A stretch of 64,000 nt of DNA from Candidatus Latescibacterota bacterium (GCA_965208835.1 OZ242358.1:1344001-1408000), one strand, 5' to 3'; numbered from the stretch's first letter, positions 4,212 to 33,277 are shown. The notes: a model not told the origin generated them from the letters alone. A program made the numbers and translations.

Positions 4212-4213
4212 AA

Positions 4214-7500: not shown

Positions 7501-8147
7501 TTCGGCATCGCCGAGTGGTAGAGCGGCAGAAAGAAGCCGAAGTCCGGGTTCTGGTTGGAGCGGCTGCTGCCGAGAAGGCCGAATACGAAGGGCATGCTGT
7601 TGTGGGAGGCCTTGAGCGTGATGTGGTGGGTGAGTTCGTGGGTAAAAACGTCGCGCACCCAGTCGTGGGTGCCTCGCGAGTCCCAGTTGAGGGGCGTGGA
7701 ACCGAACGAGATGAGATTTCCAAGGTAGAAGGAGAAGGCATTTCCCAGAATGTCAATATCGGAAACGACCACGTGAATCGGGGCGTAGCGTTCTATGGAA
7801 CCCGGGTAATGGCGGGATATCTTCTCGAAAGTGTCGTCCGCAATCTCAGCGATACGACGGGCGGTATTCTCCGCTTCGGCATAGTAGATGGCGAAGTACT
7901 TCGTGCGGATTGCCCGTGCGCCCGGCACGTGCAGGCCTAGCAGGGAAGGGAAGAAATGACGCTCGTGCCGCTCCCATGTATAATCGGGCATGGTGCGGTT
8001 CAACGGCACATCGGCAATGTCCACTGTGGGGCCGTGTTTGAATTTTCTGGGAAACTGCTGGGCGTCGGAAGGGGACGGCGCGCCGGACGAAATGGCGATT
8101 AGTACAGCGCCGAAGAGGCTGATGGACAGGATCGTGGATCGGTTCAC
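4581..8147 (-). CDS. outer-membrane multi-domain protein: gluzincin metallopeptidase + PD40/TolB-like propeller + BamA/TamA-like barrel
   Basis: GTG at 8147 after AGGAG; signal peptide; HELTH and WYAEGIAQ; repeated P-x-[YWVI]-[ST]-PDG motifs; C-terminal YLGGLGTLRGY and terminal IYFGLTI. Confidence 0.8.
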   Translation of the reverse strand: MNRSTILSISLFGAVLIAISSGAPSPSDAQQFPRKFKHGPTVDIADVPLNRTMPDYTWERHERHFFPSLLGLHVPGARAIRTKYFAIYYAEAENTARRIAEIADDTFEKISRHYPGSIERYAPIHVVVSDIDILGNAFSFYLGNLISFGSTPLNWDSRGTHDWVRDVFTHELTHHITLKASHNSMPFVFGLLGSSRSNQNPDFGFFLPLYHSAMPNWYAEGIAQFEAEEYGGDLWDTHRDMILRMAALEDDLLSYTDMNVFGKDGFKSEQVYNQGYAFLNYLADTYGPDSVRAMSRHRPIVNFKSAVKKSTGISAPDLYDEWTAHLDRKYGALADSIRAAGEREGELLSDRGDVEHFPTYSPDGTKMAFISNEGSDYAIMEMLVMDLATRRLTKVARSRKYGKYVNLPFSWTPDGNSLVYSKSVGGNWDIFIYDLTSRKERRVTVGLRGRDPAVSPDGREIAFVGNRDGTSNLGIVNIDGTDIRYLTNNNNGTQYYTPRWTEDGSRLLFGIFRGKDRDIALINTDATPRPKKTDTKKTEKEELAERIAQRKKSETEVDSAQAEADSLALAEAAQRDSMVAFPDSLAYANNAGFEVIINTRADERDAVWLPGGEGIVYASDRTGIFNIYTLDLASGRQEQLTNVIGGAFSPSISPDGDEILYSGYHAANYNIYRIRKSDAAAAAAADSLVRDYSSIYNGKKVGDLFNTGRYAPRLASIGVVPILVLGPTFIGNRFGLDQLSAGAEAAWGDLLGSDNIYAGFTVGKNLKKGVDLNSNFSTFYTKGLPAVHTEDRTYAPRFFIGASQQTINSQIDRGIVDSRRDTTSGTLQIVIDDTLRLVPGVTSFTNLSLTQEDKYKNIFSDFVVGVEASIGRRQVLSMTWGHRRYKESTHTKQVILDSTRLVQNRQGVVTDITDQIPGLGEDEVVFDDFLYRDLSFFKSNDLTVGWRYFNFLPAKDMFVNPSRGRAITLRYRRINASVTDSLFRSQLNQDGVAAPTYMSDPTKLGINEYIVSWNEFIGLPGRATLALQGFLAYKDKPIKDVQENTSSAEGVFYYPLRYYLGGLGTLRGYPYFSTSGGKAVLARASLTFPIFRHAARELPPFHFDKIYGTLFVETGAAGNFESLRVWLDSEDRFKRSAFLTDWGFELRMQMFTHYRIPLYGYFQIAFPTRDTILGREIDKNRIYFGLTI

Positions 8148-8305
8148 GTGCTTCTCCTGGACTTCGGGTGTTGGATTGGGCGGCTGCCGGGCGCTTGTAC
8201 GACGCGCATGGGGACAGGTCGACAATCCCGTCTGGCCCGCACCGGCCGCGGTTCGGCTATAAAAGTATACAATTAGACTTGCGAAGACAACGAACAGTTC
8301 CAATT

Positions 8306-9295
8306 TCACGCCGATGGGAGGTGCTGCCGTGTCCGCAGTATACAGGCGACGCTGTGGTTTGCGTCGATTTCGAGCAGTTCAGGCACGATTTTCGTGCAAG
8401 CGTCTTCCCGTTCGGGGCAGCGCGGATGAAACGGGCAGCCTGGAGGGACGTTGGCCGGGCTTGGGACGTCGCCCGTGAGTACCGTGCGTTGCTTCCTGAC
8501 ACGCGGGTCCGGCTCGGGAACGGCCGATAGCAGGGCACGGGTATAAGGGTGCTGGGGATCGCTGCAGAGGGTGCGGCTTTCCGCGATTTCCACGATACGT
8601 CCGAGGTACATCACCGCGATGCGGTTGGAGATATGTTTGACAACGCTCAGGTCGTGCGCGACGAAGAGGAAGGTAAGGCCGAACCGGCTCTGAAGATCCT
8701 GAAGAAGATTGATGATCTGCGCCTGGATCGACACGTCCAATGCCGAAACGGGTTCGTCCGCAACGATGAATTCCGGATTCACGGCCAGCGCCCGCGAAAT
8801 GCCGATACGCTGGCGCTGCCCCCCGCTGAATTCGTGGGGATACCGGCGGGCATAGTCCGGCCGGAGACCCACGGTTTCCAGGAGTTCCGCCACGCGTTCC
8901 CGCGTGTCGCTGCCGTCCGTGAGCTTGTGGATTTTCAGTGCTTCGGCCAGCATGCCCCCCACTGTCATGCGGGGGTTCAGCGAACTGTAGGGGTCCTGGA
9001 AGATGATCTGCATGCGGCGTCGAACGGCCCGGAGTTCAGAGCGCTTCAGGTCGAAGACGTCGGTGCCGTTGAACAGAACGCGGCCCGCCGTAGCCTCGAT
9101 CAGCCTGAGGATGCTCCTCCCCGCGGTTGTCTTGCCGCACCCGGACTCCCCCACGAGACCCAGGGTTTCTCCCCGGTGCAGGGTGAAAGAGACTCCGTCC
9201 ACGGCTCTTACGTAGCCGACGGTCCGGGAGAATACCCCGCGGGTGATTGGGAAGTGTTTCTTCAGCCCATGGACTTCGAGCAGTGGTCTGGACAT
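8306..9295 (-). CDS. oppF: oligopeptide ABC transporter ATP-binding subunit
   Basis: [40 protein letters not shown]. Confidence 0.92.
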
Positions 9296-9296
9296 G

Positions 9297-10295
9297 TCAA
9301 TCCGATCGCGTCACGGGAGATGGGTAATCTTCGACCATCCAGCAGGCGACGAAGCGTCCGCCCGAGGTCGGTTCGAGGCGCGGCTCGTCCGCTTCACATA
9401 CATCCTCCGCCAATGAACACCGGGGCGCGAACCGGCATCCGGCGGGAAAACGGGTCGCATCGGGCACGGTCCCCGGAATTACGGACAGCCGGCCTTTCTC
9501 TTCATTGAGCGTGGGTATGGACTCCAGCAATCCTCTGGTGTAGGGGTGCTGCGGGTTGGCGAATATCTCATCCACCGTTCCGGTTTCCACGATCTTTCCG
9601 GCATACATGACCGCCACGCGGTCTGCGACCTCCGCAATAACGCCAAGATCGTGGGTAATCATCAGGACGGCCATTCCCAGTTCCCTCTGAAGCCGGTCCA
9701 GAAGTTCAAGTATCTGGGCTTGAATGGTCACATCCAGCGCCGTCGTCGGTTCGTCGGCGATGAGGAGTTCCGGATTGCAGCACAGGGCCATTGCGATCAT
9801 CACCCGCTGGCGCATGCCGCCGGAAAGCTGGTGAGGATACTCGTTTGCCCGCTGTTCAGGATCCGGAATGCCGACCAGATTGAGCATGTCAACCGTTATG
9901 GCCCGGGCGGCGTCCCTGCCGAGACCCTGGTGGAGCATAACGGCTTCGTCAATCTGGTCTCCGCAGGTGAATACGGGATTAAGGCTGGTCATCGGCTCCT
10001 GGAAAATCATCGCGATGTCGTTGCCCCGCACACCCTGAAGGGCCGCTTCGTCCAGGCTCAGCAGATTGCGTCCGTTGAACCGGATCTCTCCTGAGACGAT
10101 CTCCCCCGGCGGTTCGGGTACCAGTCGCATTACGGACAGAGACGTGACGCTCTTGCCGCAACCGGACTCTCCCACCAGACCCAGAGTTTCGCCCTTCTTG
10201 AGGGTGAAGGAGACCCCGTCCACGGCCCTGGCGACCCCGCCGTCCGTATGGAAGAACGTCTTCAGATCTCTGACAGTTAGCAGTGGTTCCGACAT
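9297..10295 (-). CDS. oppD: oligopeptide ABC transporter ATP-binding subunit
   Basis: [35 protein letters not shown]; start reassigned to MSEPLL. Confidence 0.92.
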
Positions 10296-10400
10296 AGATC
10301 CACCATCTGTTGAAAATGCAACCGTCACGGATACCGTGCGAACCTCAAGCTCCATGCTGGAGAACGGCGTCCCGATGATTTCCTGACCGCCACCTGCGGG

Positions 10401-11144
10401 TCAGAACAGCGGTGGATTCAAATTCAGCCAGTCTTCCAGCAGGAAATCCACGCGTCCGATGAGGAGGGAGATTCGCGCCATGACGGTATAACCGAATGAA
10501 GCGCCGAACGAAACCATCAGGAAATAGATGCCGACCCTGGAGATGCCGCCCACGACCCCCTTATGTTCGACGGAAAAATAAAAGTAAATGAGTACGCTCA
10601 CAACGCCGATCAGGATGATCGCCGGATCCAGAACGGCCCATCCGAAGCCCGCCGACGCCTGTGAAAACGGGAGGATCGTGGGTTCGATCTGCTCGATAAT
10701 GAAGGAGGCGACGCGCCGGGGGATGGCCAGCCCCGCGCCGAGTCCCACGAAGAAGGCAAATGAAATACGGCTGAGCCACACCGCTTTGCCGACAAAGCGG
10801 GTCATCAGAAAAAGACCGAGGCAGGCCGGAACGATCACCAACCACTTGACGCCCGTGTCCGGCGGCGGACGGAACAGAGGGTTGAAGACGTCCAGCAGGA
10901 TGCTCTGGTACCAGACCAGAGCGAGTTCGTACGCGGCGACAACGCCCACGTAGAGATGCTCGGCCAGCTTGAAGAGCGGATTGTCCCTGTAGAGAAAGCT
11001 GTACAGGGCGAGCGTGATCCCTGCGGCGAGGATGATGCCGAATCCCGACCAGCTTGCCTCCAGGCTGCCAGAGGCAAGGAGATAGACATTCACCGCCGCA
11101 AAAAGCAGAAGGAAGATCGGGAAGACGATGTGTTCTCTTTGCAT
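10401..11144 (-). CDS. conserved hypothetical integral membrane protein
   Basis: About 7 hydrophobic segments; YSFLYRDNPLFKLAEHLYVG, FGASFGYTVMARISLL. Confidence 0.75.
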   Translation of the reverse strand: MQREHIVFPIFLLLFAAVNVYLLASGSLEASWSGFGIILAAGITLALYSFLYRDNPLFKLAEHLYVGVVAAYELALVWYQSILLDVFNPLFRPPPDTGVKWLVIVPACLGLFLMTRFVGKAVWLSRISFAFFVGLGAGLAIPRRVASFIIEQIEPTILPFSQASAGFGWAVLDPAIILIGVVSVLIYFYFSVEHKGVVGGISRVGIYFLMVSFGASFGYTVMARISLLIGRVDFLLEDWLNLNPPLF

Positions 11145-11156
11145 ACCGGTATCCTC

Positions 11157-11984
11157 TTACGTCCGTGAGGCGCTGCGGTGCAGAAAGTAGACCGCGTTGC
11201 CCAGCAGGATAAACCCGATGATGACGATGTGTGCGACGGATTGCGGACGCATACCGCTGACCGCGAGGCCTCTCTTGCCCACCAGCGCTTCGTATTCCGC
11301 GGCGCCCGCAAGCCCGCCGATGAGGCCGTTGAGCTGCCGGGACTGAAGGAAGGGGAAGAAATCCGGCGCCATCACCGCGGTACAACCGGCGCCGAGTGGA
11401 AATCGGTATCGTTCCTGCCCATAAGCGATCCATTCGTCCACGCCGGGGTACCCGGCCGCCAGGTCGATCACGTAATCGAAATCCTTCAACGAGCGCAGAT
11501 TGCGGGTGAGAGGCATTTCAGCCGTGTCGACGCCCCGGATGTCTTCCGGAAACGCGGCGTGCAGATCCTGACCCATGTTCAGGATCAGGATCGGACCTCC
11601 CGCCTTGAATCCGAGAAACGCATAGTCCGTCCCGTTTGTCCGTCCGTATTCCCCTGCCGCCGTATCGAACGCCTGCATGGCAAGTCCCACTGCTTCGGTG
11701 ATGAGGGTCACGCCCACCACCCGGATGTTCCGGCTGAAGCAATGGCGCAGAATGGCCAGAGCCATGGGCTGGAGCTCCGGCTGCGAACTGGGACCGTAGT
11801 CGAAGGAGATGAGTACGACGGCATCAGGTTTTCCGGCCAGGCTCTCTACCGTGTCGTAAACCGCGCGTACGTTGGGCGTGGCCTTGATTGGCAGCTGGAA
11901 GCCGATGAGGAGAGGAATACATACGGCCAGAAAGACGGCAATGTACACGATGCGGCGGTCGATGTTCAGGAGGCGCTCGATCAT
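11157..11984 (-). CDS. conserved hypothetical membrane-anchored protein (TM - soluble alpha/beta domain - TM)
   Basis: ATG 11984 overlaps upstream TGA (ATGA) with GGAGG RBS; IDRRIVY, ISFDYGPSSQPELQPM, GLAGAAEYE. Confidence 0.75.
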   Translation of the reverse strand: MIERLLNIDRRIVYIAVFLAVCIPLLIGFQLPIKATPNVRAVYDTVESLAGKPDAVVLISFDYGPSSQPELQPMALAILRHCFSRNIRVVGVTLITEAVGLAMQAFDTAAGEYGRTNGTDYAFLGFKAGGPILILNMGQDLHAAFPEDIRGVDTAEMPLTRNLRSLKDFDYVIDLAAGYPGVDEWIAYGQERYRFPLGAGCTAVMAPDFFPFLQSRQLNGLIGGLAGAAEYEALVGKRGLAVSGMRPQSVAHIVIIGFILLGNAVYFLHRSASRT

Positions 11985-12637
11985 TGTCCTTCCTCCCCGA
12001 GATAGGAACGTTCGATGCCGAAGATGATCCGAAGTGCCGTGGCGATTGCGCCGAGGCTCACGCCCAGCAGGATGCCCCGGCGAGCGGCGAGGTTTGGCGT
12101 GGCCATCAGCCACTGGGAAATGGCGGGCAGGTGTTCGGAGATGAGTGCGCCGATGGGCACCCGGCCCAGCATGACGAGCAGAGCGGCAACAAGAAGAACG
12201 ACCGCCTCGACCGAACGGGCCCGAAACGTGCGGTAGGCGGCGGAAGCGATAAAGAAGGCGAGCAGAGAGAACATCGTGGCGCCGCCGGCCACATGAATGT
12301 GGGTATACATCCAGTTCAGATCCAGACCGTCTCCCTCAGCGAGCGGCTGAAGGGGCCCCCGGCCGTTGTTGTAGACGGCAAGCAGGATGGTAACGATGAA
12401 GCCGACGTACACGACGGCGCTGAAGGCCCATCCGGCCTGCTTGCGCCTGATCCGGTGCCAGTGCATCTGCAACAGGCTGTGGATGCCAAGGAAAAGGGCG
12501 AACGCGGCGATGATCCTGTACCAGGTGGAGGTTGTAATCTCGACCGGCTGCGCAACCGGAACATAGTAGGTGAATATGCCGATGACGCCCGCTGCGAAAG
12601 CCACGAGTAGCGGCAGGGTGCGTTGCAGGAAATACAT
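11981..12637 (-). CDS. conserved hypothetical integral membrane protein
   Basis: ATG 12637 after GGGAG; about 6 TM; TMFSLLAFFIASAAYRTFRARS, LRIIFGIERSYLG. Confidence 0.75.
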   Translation of the reverse strand: MYFLQRTLPLLVAFAAGVIGIFTYYVPVAQPVEITTSTWYRIIAAFALFLGIHSLLQMHWHRIRRKQAGWAFSAVVYVGFIVTILLAVYNNGRGPLQPLAEGDGLDLNWMYTHIHVAGGATMFSLLAFFIASAAYRTFRARSVEAVVLLVAALLVMLGRVPIGALISEHLPAISQWLMATPNLAARRGILLGVSLGAIATALRIIFGIERSYLGEEGQ

Positions 12638-12755
12638 TCGATTTTCTCCCAGTGTTCTGTCGCAGAAATTGGTTGCCTGAATTCGGCGGCCGAATGGTGA
12701 GAAATTTATGGGACAGGACACTACAGTCTTGAACTGTTATGCCATGTTCACGCTG

Positions 12756-13937
12756 TCAACTCAGAATCGGCCAGAAGCCGATGCCGGCCAGTAAAGAACC
12801 CAGCACCAGCATAAGGATGAGGATTCCCTTCCCCAGGTCCTGTCCCTTCAGGCTTCCCAGCAGTTTGGGATCTCTGGACAGATAGGCGCTGGCGGCGTAG
12901 AGTTCCTCTCCCATCAGGGTATAGTCGCAGGTTGTGATAAAGAACGGAAGCTGTGTGTAGGCGTCGGTCGCGGCGATCTGGATAGCGCCGGTTGTGGAGC
13001 CGGTCTCCGCCAGGAGCAGGGATTCGGCGTAAAAATACCCCATCAGAAGATTGGCTGCCGGTCTTTCCCGCACCATCAGTCCCTCGAGCGCGGCCGCGTA
13101 GCTGAACTGGTCCGCGGCCGCCAGAAAGACGTTGTCCGGGTTGAACGCATCGGGTCTTCCGGCTTCGATGCAGGATTCTTTGACCACTTCCTGGCTCACG
13201 GACATCACAATCGGATCCCGATTTCCAACCTTGAGCTGAGTGTCGTATTCGGCGGTTCTCTTCGCCACCTGGCCGAGTATATTCACGGCGGCAATGGTGG
13301 AAGGGCTGCCCATGTCCTGGAGACCGTGCACGAACAGCACCGGTTTGCCCATTTCGGTTGCCCGGCCCAGGGCTTCGTCCAGAGCGTCCAGGCCTGCCAG
13401 CCGCCGGATATAAAGATTCTTTCGCCGGGCAAGGCGGATATAGACGAGGATCAGAATGGAGAACAGCGCGGCCAGCAGAAAATTGTTGCTTTTGGTCCAG
13501 TTGAAGTAGTTGCCGCGGGCCCGGGCTTCCACAACCGTGTGGCCTGCGCCGTGGACGCCGAGGCGAACGAAATAGGGTCGGTCGTTCTCGAGCCGGATCC
13601 GGTTCCGTCCGTCGGGATCGAGGTAGGAATCGATGTGTACGAAGTGATGATTGCGGTTCTCCTCCCCACTGCCGAACGTGGCAGACTCGTCGGCCATCGT
13701 CGGAGCCGTACTGGGCTCCAGTTCGGCGACCTGATGAAATGGCCCGTCCGGACGTTCGGAAATGCCGATGCGATATCGCGCGCTGTCAGGCAGGTCATCC
13801 ATCCGGCGCCATGTCAGCGTGATGCTGTGCCCCTGGTCGTTGGGCGTGTCGAATGCCCGGACGTCGGTGGGCGCCGAACCGCCGGCGGCCGGCGCGGCAG
13901 CGATGGCAAGGGCGAAACTGAGGAATAGATGCGCCAT
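12756..13937 (-). CDS. DUF6754-type protein with N-terminal fibronectin-III-like domain
   Basis: ATG 13937 after AGGAG; signal peptide; APTDVRAFDTPNDQGHSITLTW; IRRLAGLDALDEALGRATEMGKP, AESLLLAETG, TCDYTLMGEELYAASAYLS. Confidence 0.75.
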   Translation of the reverse strand: MAHLFLSFALAIAAAPAAGGSAPTDVRAFDTPNDQGHSITLTWRRMDDLPDSARYRIGISERPDGPFHQVAELEPSTAPTMADESATFGSGEENRNHHFVHIDSYLDPDGRNRIRLENDRPYFVRLGVHGAGHTVVEARARGNYFNWTKSNNFLLAALFSILILVYIRLARRKNLYIRRLAGLDALDEALGRATEMGKPVLFVHGLQDMGSPSTIAAVNILGQVAKRTAEYDTQLKVGNRDPIVMSVSQEVVKESCIEAGRPDAFNPDNVFLAAADQFSYAAALEGLMVRERPAANLLMGYFYAESLLLAETGSTTGAIQIAATDAYTQLPFFITTCDYTLMGEELYAASAYLSRDPKLLGSLKGQDLGKGILILMLVLGSLLAGIGFWPILS

Positions 13938-13987
13938 TGCGTGTCTCCTGGCGGTTTTAATCAGGCGCGCCTGGACGCTCCAAATCA

Positions 13988-15109
13988 TCATGCCTCGATC
14001 CTTTCGGCGTTTGCGCGGGGTATCACGGCCTGTTGTCCGTTCTCGAATTGAACTTCAAGGACACGTACCTGGATTTCCGACTCGACGGCCGCCAGTTCGG
14101 ACGGCAGGGCGGTGACGACACCGGTCTTTCCGAAGAAGGGCGCCCGTATCGTTCGGATTGGATCTCCGATGGACAGGCCGTCCCGGGCGACGGTTTCCTC
14201 GGCGGCGGCTGAATTCTCCGTGTCCGGAACGATGATTTCGGGGCGAAGCACGCCGGCCCGGATCTGGGTTGCGCCAGAGATCGAGGCCTCGTCGCCGTTT
14301 CTCTCGTTCAGGATATCGAAAGTTTTGGTTGCCATGGCGATGTCGCCGAATCCTTCGGTAATCACGACGGTGAGGCCGATTTCCTCCGTGCCCGTAATGG
14401 CCACACCCAGGTCATACCCGAGAAGGCTACGCAGATCATGGTCGCGGATGCCCCCGCCAATGAGGCCGGCTGCGCCGATCTCACACGCTTTCCGGATGAG
14501 ATCCAGTGTGACCAGGCCGCCGGCGATGCAGATCCTGCCGGCACAGGAGGCGTCGATCCGGTCTGCCGGTAGCTGCTCATCGGGTGTGGCGGCAAGTGTC
14601 CGGATCGCACCCCAGCTTTCCCCGCCAATGCCGAAAATCCCCTGAAGAAACGCGCCGACGGTTTCAACTGTGACGCCTTCGCCGGGAATGGTTTCCACAA
14701 CGGTGCCGTCCACGTACGCCCTGACCTGGACAGGTCGGGGCGGCCCTCGCAGAATGACCTGGCCGGTAACGGGCGATACGCTCTCCACGGTGCCCGTGAC
14801 CGGCGATTCCACCGTGGTTTTGAACCAGCTGATGAACGGCCGGGTCTCTGCGACAGGTTCCCCCGACTCGACCGCCTCACCCTCATTCTTGAGCATGAAG
14901 GCCGGCAGTTCGTCCGGTGTGACACCAAGCCTGTTGACCAGGTTCAGGGTGGTCACGTCGCCGGGCAGTTCGGTCCGGGCCACCACCCGATCGCGCTGCA
15001 CGGATTCGCCTTCCGAAACCAATACCTCTCCGGTGAGCGGCAGTTGGCGTCGCTTCCGAACGGTCGCGCTGCGGGTGACTCGCAGGCCGGGTGTGTATGT
15101 ATGTGCCAT
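13988..15109 (-). CDS. conserved hypothetical protein with barrel-sandwich-hybrid-like N-terminus and KOW-like C-terminus
   Basis: VLVSEGESV, KNEGEAVESGEPVA, ESPVTGTVESV; C-terminal IGDPIRTIRAPFFGKTGVV. Confidence 0.7.
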   Translation of the reverse strand: MAHTYTPGLRVTRSATVRKRRQLPLTGEVLVSEGESVQRDRVVARTELPGDVTTLNLVNRLGVTPDELPAFMLKNEGEAVESGEPVAETRPFISWFKTTVESPVTGTVESVSPVTGQVILRGPPRPVQVRAYVDGTVVETIPGEGVTVETVGAFLQGIFGIGGESWGAIRTLAATPDEQLPADRIDASCAGRICIAGGLVTLDLIRKACEIGAAGLIGGGIRDHDLRSLLGYDLGVAITGTEEIGLTVVITEGFGDIAMATKTFDILNERNGDEASISGATQIRAGVLRPEIIVPDTENSAAAEETVARDGLSIGDPIRTIRAPFFGKTGVVTALPSELAAVESEIQVRVLEVQFENGQQAVIPRANAERIEA

Positions 15110-15175
15110 CAGTTCAGGTTTTCGAAGCCGGCGCGCCGCAAAGCCTGCCGTCGCGATCGTCGGCCGGTGATGGTC

Positions 15176-16246
15176 TCACACCTTCATTTTCGGATCCAGG
15201 GCGTCTCGCAGGCCGTCGCCCAGCAGGTTGTAAAGGGTCACGGTGATAAATATGGCGAAACCGGGTACGATAACCAGCCACCAGGCCGCCGTATTGTTCC
15301 GGGCGCCCGCGAGTATCGCGCCCCAGGTGATGGCCTCCGCGGGCACGCCGATGCCGAGAAAGCTCAATCCGGATTCGGCCAGAATGGCGCCCGCCACCCC
15401 GAAGGCCGCCGGGATGAGTACGGGCGCGATCGCGTTTGGCAGAATGTGGATGAACATGATACGGCCGCTGGAATATCCGAGACTCTTGGCCGCGGAAACG
15501 AAGTCGTAGCTCCTGACCTGCAGAAACTGCGATCTCGTGAGCCTGGCGATACCCACCCAGCCGGTAAAGCCGAGGATGATCATCACGAAGAAGAGGCTGG
15601 GTGGAAAGAATGCGGCCACCGTGATGATCAGAAAGAGGGTGGGTATGGCCGCCCAGAGTTCGAACAGACGCGAAAGAACCAGGTCGGTCCAGCCCCCGAA
15701 ATAACCCGCCAGCGCGCCGAGAGCGACGCCGATGATCATCGAGATCGCCACCGAGACCAGTCCGATGGTCAGTGCGTATCGCGAACCGTGGATCAGCCCG
15801 GAAAGAACGTCCCGGCCCAGCCGATCCGTTCCCAGAATATGTGCTGTGCCGGGCGGCTGGTACTTGTCCCCCAGGTTGACGTCGCTGGGACCGTAGGGAA
15901 CGGGCGGAAATATTGCGGATTCCGACCTCAGGCGTTTGAAGTTTTTCCTTCTTCTGAGCGGCTCCGGCCAGTCGGCCAGTCCGAGATGAACGGCGTACTG
16001 GCGGAAGGCGGGGAAATAGGTCTTGCCCCTGTACTTCATATAGTAGGGTTTGTTGCCCGCGAGAAAATCCGCGAACACCGCCGTGAACGCGAGAACGCCG
16101 ATCGCCGCCAGGCTTATGAGGGCCGGCCGGTTCTTTTTGAACTGCCGCCAGACCAGTTTGGAGTAGGTCTGACCCTCCTGGACAGGTTCGGATTCGGGCG
16201 TCGGGACGTCAGGTTCGTTGAGATCGCGCGTTGTCGCGTCGGACAT
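15176..16246 (-). CDS. oppC: oligopeptide ABC transporter permease
   Basis: HILGTDRLGRDVLS, EAA-like FVSAAKSLG, HILPNA, NLLGDGLRDALDP. Confidence 0.92.
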   Translation of the reverse strand: MSDATTRDLNEPDVPTPESEPVQEGQTYSKLVWRQFKKNRPALISLAAIGVLAFTAVFADFLAGNKPYYMKYRGKTYFPAFRQYAVHLGLADWPEPLRRRKNFKRLRSESAIFPPVPYGPSDVNLGDKYQPPGTAHILGTDRLGRDVLSGLIHGSRYALTIGLVSVAISMIIGVALGALAGYFGGWTDLVLSRLFELWAAIPTLFLIITVAAFFPPSLFFVMIILGFTGWVGIARLTRSQFLQVRSYDFVSAAKSLGYSSGRIMFIHILPNAIAPVLIPAAFGVAGAILAESGLSFLGIGVPAEAITWGAILAGARNNTAAWWLVIVPGFAIFITVTLYNLLGDGLRDALDPKMKV

Positions 16247-16250
16247 GGAT

Positions 16251-17552
16251 TTAACCCTGAAGACGGGAAAACTCGATGCGCGGGTCCACGACTTTCAGGA
16301 GGATGTCCGCGAGAAGAATTCCCAGCAACGAGAGGAACGAACCGATGGTCAGAATGGCCATTACCATGGGATAGTCGCGCACGAGTACGGATTGAACGCC
16401 AAGATATCCCAACCCCGGAATGGTGAAGATGGTCTCGATAAAGACCGAGCCGGCGATGATGGCCGGAAGCAGATTCGCCAGTATGGTCACAATGGGAATA
16501 AGTGAGTTGCGGAAGACGTGCTTCAGAATCACGACTTTTTCCGGAAGGCCCTTTGCGCGGGCCGTGCGGACGTAGTCCAGCCTGAGGTTCTCCAGCATGC
16601 TGGTTCGCATGAATCGGGAGAGACCCGCGAAGCTGGCGTAGCTCGAGGCCAGGACCGGCATGGCCATGTGATGGGCGTGGTCCGTCAACAGTCGCCAGAA
16701 TCCCCACTCGGAAGACGCGTCCAGAGACTGAATGCCGGAGGCCGGAAACCAGTAGAAGAACTCCTTGTTGCAGAAAAATACGATGAGCAGCATGCCCACC
16801 CAGAACGAAGGCATGGACCAGAGGATAAAGGTCCCCGTGGTCAGCGTGCGATCGGTCCGGGTATCCTGTTTCACGGCCAGCCAGATGCCGAGCGGCAGTC
16901 CGATGACGTAGGCGACGATCAGACTGATGATGTTGATTTCAATGGTGATGGGCACACGCGCGAGGATATGCGAGATGACCGGCTGCTGATCCTTGAAAGA
17001 ACGGCCGAAATTGAGCGTAACGAAGCGCCGGTCGAAGCAATGGAAGAGGAGCAGGCCGGCGCCGGTATACTCGTAGTTTTCCTCGAGTTTGACGGTCTTG
17101 CTCTCCCAGAAAGAGGAAAGGACGAGCGCCTGCGCCTCGTCCGGATGATATTTTTCGAAACTGCTAAGGAATCGGGCTTTTCGCGCCTCGTTTTCCAGCG
17201 CGGCCAATTCGCTTCTTTCCATGGGTTCCAGGGTCGAGAGAAAGTCGTCAACGCGCCGGCCCATGCGTTCGTAGCTGTTGAGCGGCTCAACGTGAAGAAC
17301 CAGGCTCGATAACCAGTTGAGGTATTGGAGGTGTAGCGGCCTGTCCAGGCCGAGCTGACGGCGAAGGTCCTGGCGCGTTTTTTCGAAATCGGACTGCCGT
17401 TCCGTCGAGATGCCCTCCTCGCCTGCCATGCCGCCGAGAAAGAAGTCGACGGGGTCGCCCGGAGCGAGATGCATGACCAGGAAGGAAATCAGCGTGATGC
17501 CGATCATCGTCGGGATCATCAGCAGGCTGCGCTGCAGGATGTACTGGATCAT
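16251..17552 (-). CDS. oppB: oligopeptide ABC transporter permease
   Basis: YILQRSLL, LAPGDP, LGLDRP, DYVRTARAKGL, VDPRI; enlarged periplasmic loop. Confidence 0.9.
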   Translation of the reverse strand: MIQYILQRSLLMIPTMIGITLISFLVMHLAPGDPVDFFLGGMAGEEGISTERQSDFEKTRQDLRRQLGLDRPLHLQYLNWLSSLVLHVEPLNSYERMGRRVDDFLSTLEPMERSELAALENEARKARFLSSFEKYHPDEAQALVLSSFWESKTVKLEENYEYTGAGLLLFHCFDRRFVTLNFGRSFKDQQPVISHILARVPITIEINIISLIVAYVIGLPLGIWLAVKQDTRTDRTLTTGTFILWSMPSFWVGMLLIVFFCNKEFFYWFPASGIQSLDASSEWGFWRLLTDHAHHMAMPVLASSYASFAGLSRFMRTSMLENLRLDYVRTARAKGLPEKVVILKHVFRNSLIPIVTILANLLPAIIAGSVFIETIFTIPGLGYLGVQSVLVRDYPMVMAILTIGSFLSLLGILLADILLKVVDPRIEFSRLQG

Positions 17553-17623
17553 CTGCGTTCAGGCCTTTCTGTGCCGTCGTCTGTTCATCGGGGGTCGCAA
17601 CAGGGTCCGGTCGTCTCCCCGGC

Positions 17624-19465
17624 CTATTGGTACAACCGGTTGGAGGCGCCTACCCACCACTCCTGCGTGTCCGCGCCAACGGCATACCAGTTGTCACCCG
17701 CAAAACGCCTGCTGTAGGAAATGGCGTTGCGGGATTTCCAGAGAAACGTATAGGGTTGCTCATTATACAGGATTTCCTGGAAACGCCGGTAGAGCTGTAT
17801 TCTCTTGTCCATATCGAACTCCCTCCGGTAGGTTTCCAGGATGCGGTCGACTTCGTCGTTCTTGAAGCCGATGTAATTCGACCCCTGTCCCTCTGCCTGC
17901 GAGGAGTGCCAGATCTGATAGGAATCCGGCGGTGTGCGCAGGCTGCCGGTCCAACCCAGGGTACAGGCTGCGAAGTCCTTTTTTCGTACGACCCGATCCA
18001 GAAAAATGGTCCAGTCCAGTTCGCGCACGTCGCAGACGACACCGATGTCCTGCAGTTCATATTGCAACGCCAGGGCGATGTCCTTGCGGAGCTGGTTCCC
18101 GGAGTTGACAAGGAATTCGAATTTGAACGGGAGTTTCTCGCCGTCGACGACCTTGTCCAGGATGCCGTCGTTGTCGCTGTCGGACCAGCCGGCCTCCTCC
18201 AGAAGGGTAAGCGCTCGGTCGGGGTCGTAGGAATGGGGTTCGAGGCTGTGGTTGTATTCGGGCCGGAATTTGTGGATGGGGCTCTCAACGGTTTCCGCGA
18301 GGCCGAACATGAGGTTAAGGACCATGCTCTCACGGTCGGTGAGGTACGTCATGGCCTTTCGCACGCGCCGGTCGCGAAAGATGGGGTGCGCGTTGTTCCA
18401 GCCGATGTACACGTAGCCCGATGAATAGATCACGCTCTTCTTGAATCGCTCGACAAAATCCGGAGACCAGCTTTTGTCCTTGAACTGCAGCGGTCTGAGG
18501 CCGAAGTAGTCGATGTTTCCGTTTGTGAGCTCGATAAACGCGGCCTCCTGGTCATTCACGATTTTGAAGACGATCTTCTCCACGTATCCCTTGGGCATGA
18601 GATCGGTCCGTTCCCCTCCCCAGTAGTTGGGATTGCGGGTAAGGATCACTTTCTGGCCCGTGACCACGTCTTCGTCCCAGTCTTTCACGAGATAGGGGCC
18701 GGAGCCCAGCATTTTCCGATGGTATCCGGTGTTGAATTTCTCCGCGAATTGCTGCACGCGCTCCGCGTGCGGGCCGCTCTCCCAGGATCCGTCGATGAGG
18801 CTGCGGATGTCGACCGGTTCCAGCAGCCCGTCGGGGTCGTAGAAGTGTTTGGGAAGGATCTCCATAGCACCCAGGGAGATGTTGTTCCTGAAATAGGGTT
18901 CCCGACAGACGAAACTGATTCTGTGTTTGCCCTCCTGCTTGACGTCGCTGATGGCTGCGTAGTAGTTCCGCAGCGAGGCAGCCAGGACTTTCGGGTTCTT
19001 GATGACCTTGATGCTGAAGAGTACGTCGTCCGCCGAGAGCGGCCTGCCGTCGGCGAAACGGACGTCGTCGCGCAGGTCGAAGGTGTAGGTGAGCTTGTCT
19101 TCGGACACCGAGGGAGGTCCCTTCGCTACCAACCCTCTGAGACTGTAGGGTGATTCGTTCTCGATGTCGAGCAGCGACTCGAAGATATACTGGTGTACCG
19201 TGGAAGCGCCCGAGTCGTTGGATACGTACGGATTGAAGTTCTCCGGGTCGGACAGGAAGTGGTAAACCATCCAGTCTCCGTATTCCGGCTGGGTATCGCC
19301 GGTATACATGGCGGGTACCCGTTCCGTTCCGTCCAGCACGATCGCGGGAGCTTCCCTCGTATCCATAAGCGTGCGTTGAACCTTCTGCCAGGGTGTGTCG
19401 TCATCGCATGCCGCTGAAAAAAGGCAAAACAGCCCCAGGATTACCAATCCGCGCGCGTTTGCCAT
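17624..19465 (-). CDS. oppA: peptide ABC transporter substrate-binding lipoprotein (family 5)
   Basis: Lipobox-like FSAAC; YTFDLRDDVRFADGRPLSADDV, GSGPY, RNPNYWG, DRRVRKAM. Confidence 0.88.
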   Translation of the reverse strand: MANARGLVILGLFCLFSAACDDDTPWQKVQRTLMDTREAPAIVLDGTERVPAMYTGDTQPEYGDWMVYHFLSDPENFNPYVSNDSGASTVHQYIFESLLDIENESPYSLRGLVAKGPPSVSEDKLTYTFDLRDDVRFADGRPLSADDVLFSIKVIKNPKVLAASLRNYYAAISDVKQEGKHRISFVCREPYFRNNISLGAMEILPKHFYDPDGLLEPVDIRSLIDGSWESGPHAERVQQFAEKFNTGYHRKMLGSGPYLVKDWDEDVVTGQKVILTRNPNYWGGERTDLMPKGYVEKIVFKIVNDQEAAFIELTNGNIDYFGLRPLQFKDKSWSPDFVERFKKSVIYSSGYVYIGWNNAHPIFRDRRVRKAMTYLTDRESMVLNLMFGLAETVESPIHKFRPEYNHSLEPHSYDPDRALTLLEEAGWSDSDNDGILDKVVDGEKLPFKFEFLVNSGNQLRKDIALALQYELQDIGVVCDVRELDWTIFLDRVVRKKDFAACTLGWTGSLRTPPDSYQIWHSSQAEGQGSNYIGFKNDEVDRILETYRREFDMDKRIQLYRRFQEILYNEQPYTFLWKSRNAISYSRRFAGDNWYAVGADTQEWWVGASNRLYQ

Positions 19466-19485
19466 CTGATGCCTCCCTGTTGCAC

Positions 19486-21270
19486 TTAGTGTCGAGGATA
19501 AAGGTCCAATGCCTGGTTCCAGTCGGCAACCTGCTCGACCGCGTCCCCATCGGAAAACGGAAGCGGCCGTCCGCGCCCGTCGAGAATCAAACCGGCCGCG
19601 CCGCCTCTCACGGTACGGCGAATCGACTGGCCCGCCCCCGCCCCTGCGTCCCAGCCCGATTCGGGATGCAGGCTGACGTCGACCTCCTGGTCGGGGCCCG
19701 CGTGGAACAGATGGATGGATCCGACTTTCAGTTCGCCGGACTCTGTGCCGTCCGGAAGCGCAATTTCGTACGTGGCGCAGACTTCGCCCGGTTTTCCCTG
19801 CCCGGAAGGCGCAATGCAGGTGCCCAGATCGACCAGGCAGTCCCGTTCGAAGACTTCGGCGGCGGCCTGTTCATTGACGCTTGTCAGGACGCCCAGGTGG
19901 GGCATCATGAATATGCTGTCAACGGCCAGCCTCGTGAAACCCTGTGGCTGGAAGGCGTCGATGAGCATGGCGGCCGACTGCGCGCGCCGGGGCGCGTGGG
20001 AAAGTACGCCTCCGCTGCCCACGAGCAGGTCCAGGTCCGGCATGTGAATCAGGCTTTCGCCCGCGGCGGTCTGATCGAAAGCGTCGGAAAGGGTGCGTTC
20101 CGTCTGCACGCCTTTAAGGCCTACGGCCAGGGCCCGGTGCTGCTCGAACGCCAGGCGCAATGCCTCGCGGGCGATGGCCTGCTCGAGCTGCAGCTCCTCA
20201 AGCGTCTGGGGCACGGTGGTCGGACGGATCATCTTGTTCTTGACGCGGTCTCTGAGGTCGGCCTCTTCGATTTCAAATGGGACCCAGCGCATCACGTTCG
20301 GCAGGCCTGCTTCCGCCAGAACGTTCGAGATGCTGTACGACATACCCAGATTGGCGCTCACGGTACGATTGAATCGATCCCCGAACACGCTGAAGACATC
20401 GGTGGTCGCCCCGCCGATGTCCACACCCACGACGTTGATGTCGCGACGCCGGGCCACGGTCTGAATGAGCAGGCCGACCGCGCCGGGCGTTGGCATAATG
20501 GGGGCACCCGTCCATTCCATCAGCTTACGGTATCCGGGCGCCTGCGCCATCACATGTTCAAGGAAGAGGTCGTGGATCACCTGCCGCGCCGGTCCCAGGT
20601 TCTCGCGTTCGAGTTGAGGGCGGATATTGTCGGTGGTTTTCAGCGCGGTTTTTTCGCCCAGGACCTGTTGAACGTCCTCACGTGCGTCGGTGTTTCCGGC
20701 GTAGATCACCGGAAGCCGGAATCCGGCGCCGAACCTCGGTCTGGGGTCCGCCGCGGCGATGAATTCCGCCAGTTCCACCACGTGGCTCACGGTACCGCCG
20801 TCCGTTCCACCTGACAGGAGCACCATGTCGGGACGCAAGTGGCGGATGCGCTCGATCTTCTGGTGGGGCAGGCGACCGTCGTTGGAAGCGAGGACGTCCA
20901 TGACAATGGCGCCGGCGCCCAGGGCAGTACGCTGGGCGCTTTCGCCGGTCATCGCCTGGACAACGCCGCCTACCATCATCTGAAGGCCGCCTCCGGCGCT
21001 GCTTGTGGACACATAAATGTCAACGCCCCGGCCGTCTGCCGCGGGCGTAATAATGCGTTCGCCATCAAGGATGACGCGCCCGGAGAGTTCCTCGACTTCC
21101 TGGATGGCGTTGAGCACGCCCCGGGTAACGTCTTCAAACGGAGCTTCGACCGTGGTTGGCGCCTCGCCGCGACAGGTCTGCCGGTAGCATTCCTCTTCTT
21201 TCTCGATAAGAATGGCCTTGGTGGTCGTGCTGCCGCAGTCCGTTGCGATGATGACGTCCGGTCTATCCAT
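19486..21270 (-). CDS. glutamate mutase L (GlmL/MutL)-like ASKHA ATPase
   Basis: ATDCGSTTTK, TSSAGGGL, GGTDGG, IMPTPGAV, VDIGGATTDVFS, GSGGVLSH. Confidence 0.85.
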   Translation of the reverse strand: MDRPDVIIATDCGSTTTKAILIEKEEECYRQTCRGEAPTTVEAPFEDVTRGVLNAIQEVEELSGRVILDGERIITPAADGRGVDIYVSTSSAGGGLQMMVGGVVQAMTGESAQRTALGAGAIVMDVLASNDGRLPHQKIERIRHLRPDMVLLSGGTDGGTVSHVVELAEFIAAADPRPRFGAGFRLPVIYAGNTDAREDVQQVLGEKTALKTTDNIRPQLERENLGPARQVIHDLFLEHVMAQAPGYRKLMEWTGAPIMPTPGAVGLLIQTVARRRDINVVGVDIGGATTDVFSVFGDRFNRTVSANLGMSYSISNVLAEAGLPNVMRWVPFEIEEADLRDRVKNKMIRPTTVPQTLEELQLEQAIAREALRLAFEQHRALAVGLKGVQTERTLSDAFDQTAAGESLIHMPDLDLLVGSGGVLSHAPRRAQSAAMLIDAFQPQGFTRLAVDSIFMMPHLGVLTSVNEQAAAEVFERDCLVDLGTCIAPSGQGKPGEVCATYEIALPDGTESGELKVGSIHLFHAGPDQEVDVSLHPESGWDAGAGAGQSIRRTVRGGAAGLILDGRGRPLPFSDGDAVEQVADWNQALDLYPRH

Positions 21271-21610
21271 TCAGTCGGTTTTCCGTCTCCACAAGTGTAT
21301 CGATCAGTGCCTGGACACTCTGCCGTTTCTCCAGAAAACGCACGAATCGACCGTATTCCGCGCCTGAGAAGATAAGGGTGACGAAGGGAGAAAGAAAAGT
21401 CAAAAACTGACTGCCTATAAAGTTGAACGGCCGGCCTGCTTCCAGCACCATCAACGCCGGTGTGGTCATTTGCCGGCGAACCACGAATTCCGCCAACTTG
21501 GCAGCCAGAGCACGTTCTTCCTCCGTGATTCGGCTCTCCGGAGGGTTGACGGCGAAAGCGTGTTCGCACCAGGTCCTAAGACGCTGCATCCGCGAGGCGG
21601 GTCTGGACAT
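21263..21610 (-). CDS. conserved hypothetical protein
   Basis: ATG 21610; LAEFVVRRQMTTPALMVLEAGRPFNFIGSQFL; stop overlaps start of GlmL-like gene. Confidence 0.65.
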   Translation of the reverse strand: MSRPASRMQRLRTWCEHAFAVNPPESRITEEERALAAKLAEFVVRRQMTTPALMVLEAGRPFNFIGSQFLTFLSPFVTLIFSGAEYGRFVRFLEKRQSVQALIDTLVETENRLNG

Positions 21611-22016
21611 ACTCGATGATTTCCTCCCGATTGTCTCGAAGGCGCAGGAAACAGCCTCGAAACGGATCGAGCCGGTGAGGATGGGCGAACGGGCTGAGAA
21701 AAACGCCATCCGTGACAACGGCATGCCGGCGAATCCGGTTCCACGGAATTGTCCGCCGCGCGCCAAGGTGCGCTATCACGACATGCTTCTCCAGGAGTGC
21801 GTATCGTGTGGGGAGAAAGTAACGGGACATGGATGCCGTGAGGAGCGCTGCCGAAAGAAAACCGTACGCCGGCATGCTGAATTCAATGGCGATCAGTACC
21901 GATAGCCCCAGAATGACCACGATGAGCAGGCCCGTCTTGGCCGGCGGTTCTTCCAGGAGGGGATGGACCGACCAGCGGAGTTCAGATGCCGATTCGTGCG
22001 TCGTCGGTTTGTCCAT
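21576..22016 (-). CDS. hypothetical membrane protein (two TM + PH-like soluble part)
   Basis: WSVHP, two hydrophobic helices, YFLPTRY, GVFLSPF; operonic overlap. Confidence 0.65.
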   Translation of the reverse strand: MDKPTTHESASELRWSVHPLLEEPPAKTGLLIVVILGLSVLIAIEFSMPAYGFLSAALLTASMSRYFLPTRYALLEKHVVIAHLGARRTIPWNRIRRHAVVTDGVFLSPFAHPHRLDPFRGCFLRLRDNREEIIEYVQTRLADAAS

Positions 22017-22068
22017 GCTTTCCGTGAGTCGGCAAGGAGACGGCCAGGCTGATTCTTCTAAATTGAAG

Positions 22069-22944
22069 TTATATAATGCGGCGGACGACGCGGGGTTGGC
22101 GCTTGCCGCCTCCGAGGTTCCAGGATTCCGTGCCGTACTTGGTTTCAGCGAGATGTTCGGCGCAGGCGGTTTCCTCGCGAGACAACGTCGATTCGGTCAG
22201 GGTGATGTCGAGGGTCTCTTCAAAACCGTCACGCAGGGCGTGCGCCACGGTGTGGAAGTCTGCCGGGCGGCCCGCTTCCGAAAGGGAGACGGTGTGCCGA
22301 TCCAGTTCACGACGAAAGCGTTCCTTCAGGAGCTGACGGCGGTCCGGCATGAGATCGATGAGATGCTTGTGTTCCGGGCCCAGAAGAAGCGAGCCGTGTT
22401 GAAGCAGCACGCCGCCCAGGCGTCGCTGGGCGCTGCCTATGATTTTCCTGTCTGCGATCGTTACCTCGTATTGCGTAGTACTTGAAAAACAGGGTGAAGT
22501 GAGACCCTCTCCACGGGGAGACGAAGCGGGATTGCGTCGCGGCTCGAATCGGGCGGCCACGCCGAGGAGTTGCAGGCTTGCAACCAGGCAGGCGCTGATC
22601 TTTCGGTAGGACTCCTGAATGGAGCCGCCCAGCAGCGGGTCGTCGGTGCGGCAGGTGACGCTGTATGTGAGTTCGTTCCAGTGGAGGACGGCGCGCCCGC
22701 CGCTGGGCCGGCGGACAAGCTGAATGCCACGCTCCCGGCATCGATCCGCGTCGACTTCGCGAGCGATCCGCTGGGCATAGCCGAAAGAGACGGCGGGGGG
22801 CGTCCAGCTGAACGTCCGGACCGTGGGCGGCGCGGTATCCTCCTCAACGCCCCGCACGATGGCTTCGTCCACGGCCATATTGAAAAAGGCGTTTCCCGAC
22901 CCGGTGTTCAGGAAACGCCACGGACGCGATCCGGTCTTCCGCAT
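22069..22944 (-). CDS. lipoate-protein ligase family (LipM-like octanoyltransferase)
   Basis: NMAVDEA, VRRPSGGRAVLH, ELTYS, RKIIGSAQ, LQHGS. Confidence 0.88.
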   Translation of the reverse strand: MRKTGSRPWRFLNTGSGNAFFNMAVDEAIVRGVEEDTAPPTVRTFSWTPPAVSFGYAQRIAREVDADRCRERGIQLVRRPSGGRAVLHWNELTYSVTCRTDDPLLGGSIQESYRKISACLVASLQLLGVAARFEPRRNPASSPRGEGLTSPCFSSTTQYEVTIADRKIIGSAQRRLGGVLLQHGSLLLGPEHKHLIDLMPDRRQLLKERFRRELDRHTVSLSEAGRPADFHTVAHALRDGFEETLDITLTESTLSREETACAEHLAETKYGTESWNLGGGKRQPRVVRRII

Positions 22945-22947
22945 GAA

Positions 22948-23706: not shown

Positions 23707-23891
23707 CCTGCGGGAATGGAGGTTGTACTCGGCCGTGAAACAAACTGACAAGCCGTCTGCATTCCGCCGTGACGGTGGCGTCCGACGTCCGCCCGGCGAG
23801 TCTGCAGGCTTGTGCGCCATTCGGACCGGCTCTGCGTCCGACAGCACGCCAACAAACTTACGATGTCGTCACAGCCGGGGAAGTCGGGAAC

Positions 23892-24044
23892 TAACAGCCC
23901 GTTGAAAAAGACCATCCGGGCTGCGGCCGGCCCTTGCGGTCGAAATACTGCGTTGCGCGCCTTGTCTTCGGCCGCGATGGCAATCTATTTCCGGGTCGGG
24001 ACACCATACCTCGCCTGCTGAGCGACTTTATCAACGGACTGCTA
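23892..24044. mobile_element. MITE-like element (family C) with about 19 bp terminal inverted repeats
   Basis: Left TAACAGCCCGTTGAAAAAG; right end reverse complement TAGCAGTCCGTTGATAAAG; no convincing ORF inside. Confidence 0.7.
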
Positions 24045-25295: not shown

Positions 25296-25418
25296 GGGCA
25301 CCTTCTCCCGCGTATCGGTGTTTGCATCGGCGCAGTGTTGCGACGGTATCGAATTCTCCGCGCCAGGTTCACGATCCGGACGCCGACGCGCTGACCGTGA
25401 CGCCAACTGCCCGGCAGG

Positions 25419-25661: not shown

Positions 25662-25759
25662 GGCTACTATCTCCCTTTCTTATTGCGAACCGCGAGTCAC
25701 GGAGTACAGCCCGGCGCAACGCTCCTTTCACGCCTGTCGCCAGACGGTTCACGATTGAC

Positions 25760-27423: not shown

Positions 27424-27473
27424 AAGGGTCCAGGAACGTATTCGAAGATGATATCCGGCCATCCACTCCGGAA

Positions 27474-27641: not shown

Positions 27642-27646
27642 GGGCA

Positions 27647-33264: not shown

Positions 33265-33277
33265 AAGGCTGAAAATC

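Follow-up and report, generated by a model that had tools for sequence, protein, structure and literature searches.

A conserved core of ATPase, companion protein and membrane cassette

A string of genes in a 64,000-nucleotide (nt) stretch of DNA from a Candidatus Latescibacterota bacterium (the window; coordinates are counted from its first letter) contains a conserved, autonomous and undescribed system made up of a soluble ATPase of the MutL/GlmL type (g3), its constant companion g7, and a four-gene membrane cassette, g8-g9-g10-g11, that begins with a DUF6754 protein; g2 and, as an optional first gene, g1 complete the core (Table 1). No known membrane system matched it; it is a system of a new kind, whose function we infer. 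Taking architecture and docking predictions together, we assign a probability of approximately 0.6 to a conserved membrane system in which g3 sits docked on g8. In the window this core is interleaved with the genes of a peptide ATP-binding cassette (ABC) transporter of the Opp type, and a preliminary description, made from the sequence, had taken the splitting of the Opp genes to imply one functional unit.

Related loci were fetched from species-representative genomes with an alignment of 45 DUF6754 representatives, and 79 of them, from the best 80 of 619 confirmed stretches (630 matched), were compared with the window by tblastn of its proteins. Counts for g9-g11 refer to the 62 loci with at least 4 kb of downstream sequence, and those for g1-g3 and g7 to the 62 loci with at least 5 kb upstream. 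According to record titles the hosts span more than 10 phyla and include Latescibacterota, Gemmatimonadota, Nitrospira/Nitrospirota, Scalindua, Brocadiaceae, Anammoxibacter, Phycisphaerae and Methylomirabilis, together with WOR-3, Poribacteria, Zixibacteria, Ignavibacteria, BRC1/Sumerlaeota, Edwards-, Stahl- and Eisenbacteria. No archaeon was found among these 79 loci, drawn as they are from the best 80 of the 619 confirmed matches. The distribution given in the preliminary description, namely peptide-fermenting candidate phyla and some archaea, was too narrow or unverified; lineages named as nitrifiers, anammox bacteria and Methylomirabilis are among the hosts.

The order g8-g9-g10-g11 is kept in all 62 loci, with a median gap of 10 nt between g8 and g9 and of 3 nt at both the g9/g10 and g10/g11 junctions, many of the genes overlapping. 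Upstream of the first g8, g3 and g7 are found in 42 of 62 loci, a g2 homologue in 41 of 62 (overlapping g3 by a median of 4 nt; 43 loci), and a g1 homologue in 19 of 62. Because gene order is conserved across the 79 loci, the unknown genes are real rather than chance open reading frames (ORFs). Two to three complete cassettes stand in tandem in 12 of the 79 loci (L022, L024, L026, L027, L030, L048, L058, L059, L067, L070, L072 and L075), their paralogues approximately 40-55% identical to the window proteins and accompanied by no more than one g3-g7 pair per locus; the four genes of the cassette are inherited together and duplicated together. Neighbourhood analysis of DUF6754, which had been suggested as a check, therefore bore out both the ordered co-occurrence of the unknown genes and the association of the GlmL-like ATPase with the membrane genes.

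Two further neighbours of the cassette were seen in subsets of the loci. In L021 (9687-10001), and likewise in L032, L034, L044 and L068 (three titled WOR-3), g8 is immediately preceded by a small conserved ORF of approximately 100 amino acids that has a C-terminal Cys-rich motif and no relation to g1 and g2; by eye it resembles MazG-type pyrophosphohydrolases. A Memo-like gene (PF01875) follows g11 in 12 Nitrospirota loci (L031, L041, L042, L049, L050, L056, L057, L060, L062, L064, L071 and L074), a case of lineage-specific synteny.

Predicted docking of the ATPase on the DUF6754 protein

The ATPase g3 matches PF13941 from residue 7 to 478 (430.9 bits, cut-off 27), has secondary Pfam hits to Hydantoinase_A and Hydant_A_N, and retains a mean column identity of 70% across phyla. 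The phosphate-1 and phosphate-2 nucleotide-binding motifs of ASKHA proteins, at residues 9-22 and 282-291, do not vary among 21 sequences. A C-terminal extension of approximately 115 residues gave no family in a weak Pfam scan, and no PDB relative of g3 was found by single sequence or profile. At least 8000 candidates for g3 exist among 90% clusters.

Residues 159-405 of g8 match PF20539 (379.6 bits against 27). The protein consists, in order, of a signal or anchor helix, an external beta-sandwich (residues 45-158), a transmembrane helix, a cytoplasmic Rossmann-like alpha/beta domain (residues approximately 187-389) and a second transmembrane helix; its AlphaFold model has a predicted local distance difference test score (pLDDT) of 91, and positive-inside counts over alignments indicate a cytoplasmic alpha/beta domain and an external beta-sandwich. 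DUF6754 relatives number at least 7991 among 90% clusters and form at least 2242 clusters at 50% identity. They share the C-terminal domain of approximately 250 residues at 42-65% identity, and their N-terminal parts vary widely, whole proteins ranging from 229 to 1341 amino acids. Among the ectodomains of 60 long homologues searched with Pfam, nine carried BamB-like propellers, one an fn3 domain and one HEAT repeats, with no known domain in the other 49. R196, R210, E213 and G215 are invariant in the alignment of 45 representatives. By Foldseek the g8 model drew only unspecific matches, either Rossmann-like or containing Ig folds (TM-scores mostly under 0.35, the best 0.55); no PDB relative was found by single sequence or profile, and the DUF6754 domain had no usable hit in the ESM Atlas once its own family was excluded.

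We co-folded g3 with residues 187-389 of g8 in three runs, alongside three controls, and scored the predictions by ipSAE. Every run scored the pair at 0.70, and no control rose above 0.00; of 157 solved complexes 116 attain the mark set for the tool, as do 2 of 215 mismatched pairs, counts that hold only roughly here because our own alignments were used. At least 88% of the contacts were common to the runs and the pLDDT of the partner was at least 77. The PDB contains no sequence relative of either chain, which makes it unlikely that the prediction reproduces a known complex. On the g8 side the interface comprises a helix ending in the near-invariant motif GRATEMG (residues 203-216), which follows the second membrane helix of g8 after a short linker, together with residues 248-250, 332-337 and 352-358; on the g3 side it includes the invariant stretch 154-163. 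Positions conserved at 90% or more make up 67% of the g8 interface residues, against 25% elsewhere in the domain (p 0.0018). The models thus support binding of g3 to the cytoplasmic DUF6754 domain of g8 through GRATEMG. Of the wider structure prediction put forward as a check in the preliminary description, this covers the ATPase with the cytoplasmic domain of g8, and its outcome backs the proposal made there that the ATPase was repurposed to work with a membrane complex; the unity with the Opp genes found no support in the form in which it was put, as set out below.

The companion and the membrane subunits

Across phyla g7 averages 59% column identity. Its AlphaFold model (pLDDT 85) divides into three domains. 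The N-terminal one is like a barrel-sandwich and the central one like the swivelling beta/beta/alpha domain of RraA; the C-terminal one is probably a KOW/SH3-like barrel. The central domain matches RraA with Foldseek probabilities of 0.99-1.0 and, weakly, by PDB profile (E 0.016). The C-terminal domain matches the Spt5/NusG KOW domains with a probability of 1.0 (target-normalised TM-score 0.83-0.85 to Spt5 KOW5) and gave a weak NusG profile hit (E 0.043). By these matches g7 is like the RraA/HMG-CHA aldolase-like swivel domains and perhaps the NusG/Spt5 KOW domains, and differs from them in having no Pfam hit to either, KOW included, and low whole-protein TM-scores (at most 0.23, query-normalised, by Foldseek); no solved relative combining the three domains in this way turned up, and matches in the ESM Atlas were confined to unnamed clusters or ones labelled ‘KOW/RnfC-N’.

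The N-terminal domain has a weak likeness to lipoyl, RnfC-N and NqrA domains. As a lipoyl or biotinyl carrier g7 falls short of the Biotin_lipoyl cut-off (16.4-20.8 bits against 22.1), and the residue at the lipoyl position is K, Q, T, R or S across 21 sequences and so not conserved. As an NqrA/RnfC subunit, in which Rossmann and SLBB domains come after the barrel-sandwich, it reaches only sub-cut-off RnfC_N scores and Foldseek probabilities to NqrA of 0.15-0.57 with TM-scores of at most 0.14, and the g9-g11 homologues matched no Rnf or Nqr membrane subunit family in Pfam. Weak Pfam scans of g1, g2 and the g7 C-terminus gave nothing usable. The first nine residues of g7 are near-invariant across phyla (M1, H3, P7, G8 and L9 never vary, and Y5 and T6 hardly do), and residues 1-6 are modelled with a pLDDT below 50; from this conservation and low model confidence, the N-terminal peptide is a candidate docking peptide. 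Of the labels given to these proteins in the preliminary description, FN3 for g8 and KOW for g7 are supported by the structure models and by no Pfam hit in the window proteins, and the barrel-sandwich label for g7 corresponds to HlyD_3, RnfC_N and Biotin_lipoyl matches that are all below Pfam cut-offs.

Positive-inside topology over alignments gives g9 six transmembrane helices and g10 two, the latter pair enclosing a conserved domain of approximately 223 residues that is predicted to be periplasmic; g11 has about six helices, of ambiguous orientation. For g10, no Pfam family was found in more than one of 43 homologues at E values up to 0.1, no PDB relative was found by profile, and all 617 homologues are unnamed or ‘hypothetical’. 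A reading of the cassette as a pseudo-dimer was tried and rejected, since g8 with g10 and g9 with g11 show no homology (hhalign probability below 1% each).

A possible ATP-driven machine

These parts suggest how the system may work. The proteins g8-g11 would form one inner-membrane complex, its periplasm-facing parts, the variable g8 ectodomain and the conserved g10 domain, giving specificity and g9 with g11 forming the path across the membrane. The GRATEMG helix would transmit ATP binding and hydrolysis by g3, assisted by g7, to the membrane helices, and one soluble engine (g3 with g7) could serve one or several cassettes. The most likely output would be transport across the inner membrane, driven by ATP, of a solute or a component of the envelope, to which on its own we give somewhat less than an even chance. 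More tentatively, and at slightly longer odds, the system might represent a new class of primary-active machine, in which an ASKHA ATPase takes the place of the P-loop ATPases of ABC transporters, grips GRATEMG as a ‘coupling’ helix and serves interchangeable cassettes.

Several points weigh against these proposals. The co-fold score is a model confidence rather than a measurement, roughly calibrated at that, and conservation of the g3 interface is marginal (54% against 48% in the rest of the protein, p 0.047). Upstream g3 and g7 on the same strand are missing from 20 of the 62 cassette loci, in one of which (L072) both lie upstream on the opposite strand. The transport output is deduced from anatomy alone, and g9 and g11 resemble no known transporter family: no Pfam family was found in more than four of 44 g9 homologues or three of 41 g11 homologues at E values up to 0.1, nor a PDB relative of either by profile. 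We know of no ASKHA ATPase that powers a transporter. Finally, the recurrence of Opp parts beside the cassette in three phyla may mean a link closer than that of an add-on.

The Opp genes and their relation to the core

The window holds all five components of the Opp/Dpp peptide ABC importers, by Pfam a SBP_bac_5 protein, two BPD_transp_1 permeases and two ABC_tran ATPases with oligo_HPY. The set differs from those importers in that oppABC and oppDF are split by five unrelated genes, and in that the related loci have, next to the cassette, the A component by itself, DF by itself or the two together, but not the permeases. We assign no substrate because every NCBIfam Opp, Dpp, Nik and Gsi equivalog score lies below its cut-off; the closest approach is that of OppF to the subfamily model NF008453 (406.3 against 408), and the Opp/Nik-type permease models matched by oppB are likewise all below cut-off.

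In the comparison, g3 stands next to g7 in 41 of 45 loci; the median gap over the 45 is 78 nt, and in four the gap exceeds 300 nt. In L001, the closest relative, it measures 4368 nt and contains oppABC as in the window; in L002 it measures 1281 nt and holds a gene for a DUF445 membrane protein (L002 7388-8644), and in L005 and L008 it is 820 and 538 nt. The DUF445 insert and the gap in L005 are a sign that the g3/g7 junction tolerates insertions. Since oppABC stands between g3 and g7 in the window and L001 only (one of 45 loci), and L001 is also the only one of the 79 loci with OppB/C homologues, the interleaving is a lineage-specific derived state.

Other Opp parts recur more widely. OppD/F directly follow g11 in seven loci (L001, L002, L005, L008, L014, L020 and L039). 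In the six other than L001 these ATPases carry oligo_HPY (13740-16299 in L020; 13882-17671 in L039) and no OppB/C was found within 10 kb; L039 has a family-5 binding protein at the same place. A g14 homologue comes after oppDF in five loci (L001, L002, L005, L008 and L014). A SBP_bac_5 protein lies beside the system in eight loci, which with the OppD/F loci span three phyla, and an OppA homologue just upstream of g1 in six (L006, L007 and L009-L012). Unlabelled clustering of 2286 flanking ORFs returned as cross-phylum neighbours only the binding protein (eight loci), OppD/F (seven) and LplA (seven), the remaining neighbours being synteny within one lineage. Most loci, including all those titled Nitrospira, Nitrospirota, Nitrospirae, Scalindua or Methylomirabilis, have no Opp gene within 10 kb.

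It could be held on this evidence that the unknown genes and Opp form one machine for peptide or amino-acid uptake, as the preliminary description implied, with OppDF perhaps as a second ATPase or the DUF6754 complex in place of the permeases. The interleaving in the window and L001, the OppD/F pairs without OppB/C, the binding proteins beside them or upstream of g1, the cross-phylum clustering and an OPT oligopeptide transporter upstream in L077 all speak for such a hybrid. Yet g3 and g7 are neighbours to each other in nearly all loci where both were placed, the majority of loci manage without Opp genes, the window has a normal OppB/C, which supplies OppDF with the partners it ordinarily works with, neither g9 nor g11 is similar to BPD_transp_1, and several hosts are titled as chemolithoautotrophs, which we would not expect to need peptide uptake. 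We consider the hybrid unlikely. Of the earlier claim, the unity drawn from the split Opp genes is unsupported in that form and the insertion of oppABC is local; a link of OppD/F and SBP_bac_5 genes with the cassette stands, and it is not pure chance. On our preferred reading the Opp genes and g14 are a Latescibacterota add-on outside the core: oppDF and g14 would have joined the end of the cluster first, with oppABC inserted between g3 and g7 later, in the window's own lineage. In this organism the Opp genes probably tie the machine to peptide acquisition.

The added gene g14 has a PD40 match (E 3.5e-23), with the Peptidase_MA_2 and TolB models below cut-offs, and its C-terminal 509 residues gave no family in Pfam, weak scan included. 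The lipoate-protein ligase gene LplA/B adjoins the system in seven loci and has a copy in the window (22069-22944, minus strand); it lies upstream in five loci titled Latescibacterota, Latescibacteria or Gemmatimonas and after the last cassette in L030 (approximately 17158) and L058 (approximately 17385). In L030 a glycine-cleavage operon (gcvT, H, P1 and P2) precedes g1. A link to lipoylation was considered and dropped, as the candidate lysine of g7 is not conserved and the L030 lplA sits with the glycine-cleavage operon.

The ATPase and the mutase question

The g3 protein is like the GlmL/MutL accessory protein and Or-4 in its Pfam family and its invariant ASKHA nucleotide-binding motifs. 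It differs in scoring below the NCBIfam cut-offs (NF040745 GlmL, 229.7 against 475; NF040744 Or-4, 212.8 against 600; TIGR01319, 168 against 204.05), in its C-terminal extension, in having g7 and a membrane cassette as companions and a membrane-tethered domain as predicted partner, and in lacking an adjacent B12 mutase. By Pfam, no B12-dependent mutase or B12-binding domain was found among the ORFs of the 64-kb window, in agreement with the preliminary description, and no mutase or other common theme among 115 flanking ORFs of 17 diverse loci. In public databases the orthologues of g3 are entered as ‘glutamate mutase L’ or ‘methylaspartate mutase’ (P0270, P0283, P0316, P0335, P0357, P0370, P0380 and others); since the mutase context is missing and the NCBIfam scores are sub-threshold, these names are probably misleading.

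Membership in the MutL/GlmL family still invites a reading in which g3, with the swivel protein g7, in the manner of the B12-enzyme reactivases to which GlmL is likened, uses ATP to open the DUF6754 domain and load or release a tightly bound cofactor or ligand, the complex being an enzyme or cofactor device and not a pump. The diol-dehydratase reactivase combines an ASKHA fold with a swivel domain, which is what g3 and the beta/beta/alpha domain of g7 would provide, and the B12-binding subunit of glutamate mutase is of the same general fold class as the Rossmann-like domain predicted to be the target of g3. Against this, Pfam gave no B12-binding hit, none of the invariant DUF6754 residues is a histidine, and no cobalamin-binding domain stands among the 50 Foldseek matches listed for the g8 model, which are generic; variable ectodomains and tandem cassettes would also be left unexplained for an enzyme. 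A reactivase or chaperone role of this kind strikes us as quite improbable.

Actin-fold ATPases tethered to the membrane are known from PilM-PilN, FtsA and MreB-RodZ, and ATPases that convert or energise a membrane carrier from cases such as ArsA-ArsB. As a soluble ATPase with a predicted dock on the cytoplasmic part of a membrane protein, g3 would be alike; no sequence or fold kinship of the membrane parts was found, and g3 differs in belonging to the GlmL/hydantoinase branch. On the pattern of PilM, FtsA and MreB, g3 anchored by the g8 domain might organise or sense an envelope structure via the external domains of g8 and g10. The ASKHA fold docked on a bitopic-like membrane protein, the external non-catalytic binding modules (beta-sandwich and BamB-like propellers) and the invariant, flexible N-terminal peptide of g7, comparable to those bound by actin-fold proteins, would suit such a scaffold or signalling role, but g3 lies outside the actin branch, and two polytopic subunits with multiplication of the cassette fit a conduit better, making this very improbable. 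That g3 is an ordinary GlmL, reactivating a B12 mutase whose genes lie at another site, and neighbours the membrane genes by coincidence is barely credible: the orthologue names and the PF13941 hit favour it, against three sub-cut-off NCBIfam scores, no mutase in the window or the flanks, synteny with g7-g11 in 42 of 62 loci across phyla and the predicted docking on DUF6754.

Layout of the gene string and other genes of the window

Fourteen ORFs lie head to tail and tightly packed on the minus strand between 4581 and 22016 (Table 1). The genes and their order agree with the preliminary description by ORF, Pfam and NCBIfam analysis, as does its statement that several overlap or abut: g2/g3 overlap by 8 nt and g7/g8, g9/g10 and oppF/g14 by 4 nt each, and 1 nt separates oppD from oppF. 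The interval given there, 10401-22016, misses oppD and oppF (8306-10355), and g14 was omitted though it belongs to the string. Likely starts of g2, g9 and g10 were chosen by upstream purine-rich boxes, GGGAGG in the case of g2. A scan of 4000-23900 for promoters and terminators found no more than shuffled sequence did (7 against 5.5±2.3 and 24 against 17.9±4.4) and says nothing for or against internal transcription units.

Table 1. Genes of the string in transcription order, with coordinates in the window and the features assigned to each (aa, amino acids).
Gene	Coordinates	Strand	Features
g1	21576..22016	-	small membrane protein, 146 aa; single hydrophobic stretch; no Pfam/NCBIfam family
g2	21263..21610	-	approximately 115 aa from ATG 21610; longest ORF 21263-21766; no family
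g3	19486..21270	-	MutL/GlmL-type ASKHA (actin-fold) ATPase; PF13941 MutL, E 7.4e-129
oppA	17624..19465	-	family-5 solute-binding protein; SBP_bac_5, E 2.8e-76
oppB	16251..17552	-	ABC permease; BPD_transp_1 and BPD_transp_1_N
oppC	15176..16246	-	ABC permease; BPD_transp_1 and OppC_N
g7	13988..15109	-	soluble three-domain protein; Pfam matches sub-threshold only
g8	12756..13991	-	DUF6754 protein; PF20539, E 7.7e-114
g9	11981..12637	-	218 aa from ATG 12637; longest ORF 11981-12721; 6 predicted transmembrane helices
g10	11157..11984	-	275 aa from ATG 11984; longest ORF 11157-12113; 2 transmembrane helices
g11	10401..11144	-	247 aa; approximately 6 predicted transmembrane helices
oppD	9297..10355	-	ABC ATPase; ABC_tran and oligo_HPY C-terminal domain
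oppF	8306..9295	-	ABC ATPase; ABC_tran and oligo_HPY C-terminal domain
g14	4581..8309	-	1242 aa; PD40/TolB-type beta-propeller repeats and Peptidase_MA-like region

Upstream of the cluster (22948-28648, minus strand) is a housekeeping string of fabH, fabD, fabG, fabF and rnc, the order fabF-rnc-lplA being found also in L002. Elsewhere in the window, and unlinked, are a penicillin-amidase family protein (30847-33390, minus strand, E 4.9e-217), a fatty acyl-CoA reductase-like protein (38255-39901, plus strand, NAD_binding_4 and Sterile) and a three-subunit molybdenum hydroxylase set (54928-58545, plus strand, MoCoBD, FAD_binding_5 and Fer2_2).

Meaning for the family and its hosts

Full-text searching, whose coverage excludes approximately 1.7 million PubMed Central articles and most subscription journals, gave nothing relevant for DUF6754, PF20539, GlmL with ASKHA, TIGR01319 or PF13941, and irrelevant matches only for ‘glutamate mutase L’ and ‘methylaspartate mutase’ with Nitrospira. 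The DUF6754 family is large, as its clusters at 50% identity show, and g3 and g7 are conserved at the level of core machinery. The hosts include environmentally important groups (Nitrospira, Scalindua, Brocadiaceae, Methylomirabilis, Latescibacterota and Poribacteria), and mutase names on g3-type genes can mislead metabolic reconstructions toward glutamate fermentation. Should the system prove to be a new machine, thousands of ‘glutamate mutase L’ genes would be misnamed, and the ancestral job of the GlmL family may be the remodelling of Rossmann-like domains in general rather than B12 chemistry; the machine itself would occur widely, with Nitrospirota, Latescibacterota, anammox Planctomycetota and a large number of candidate phyla among its hosts.

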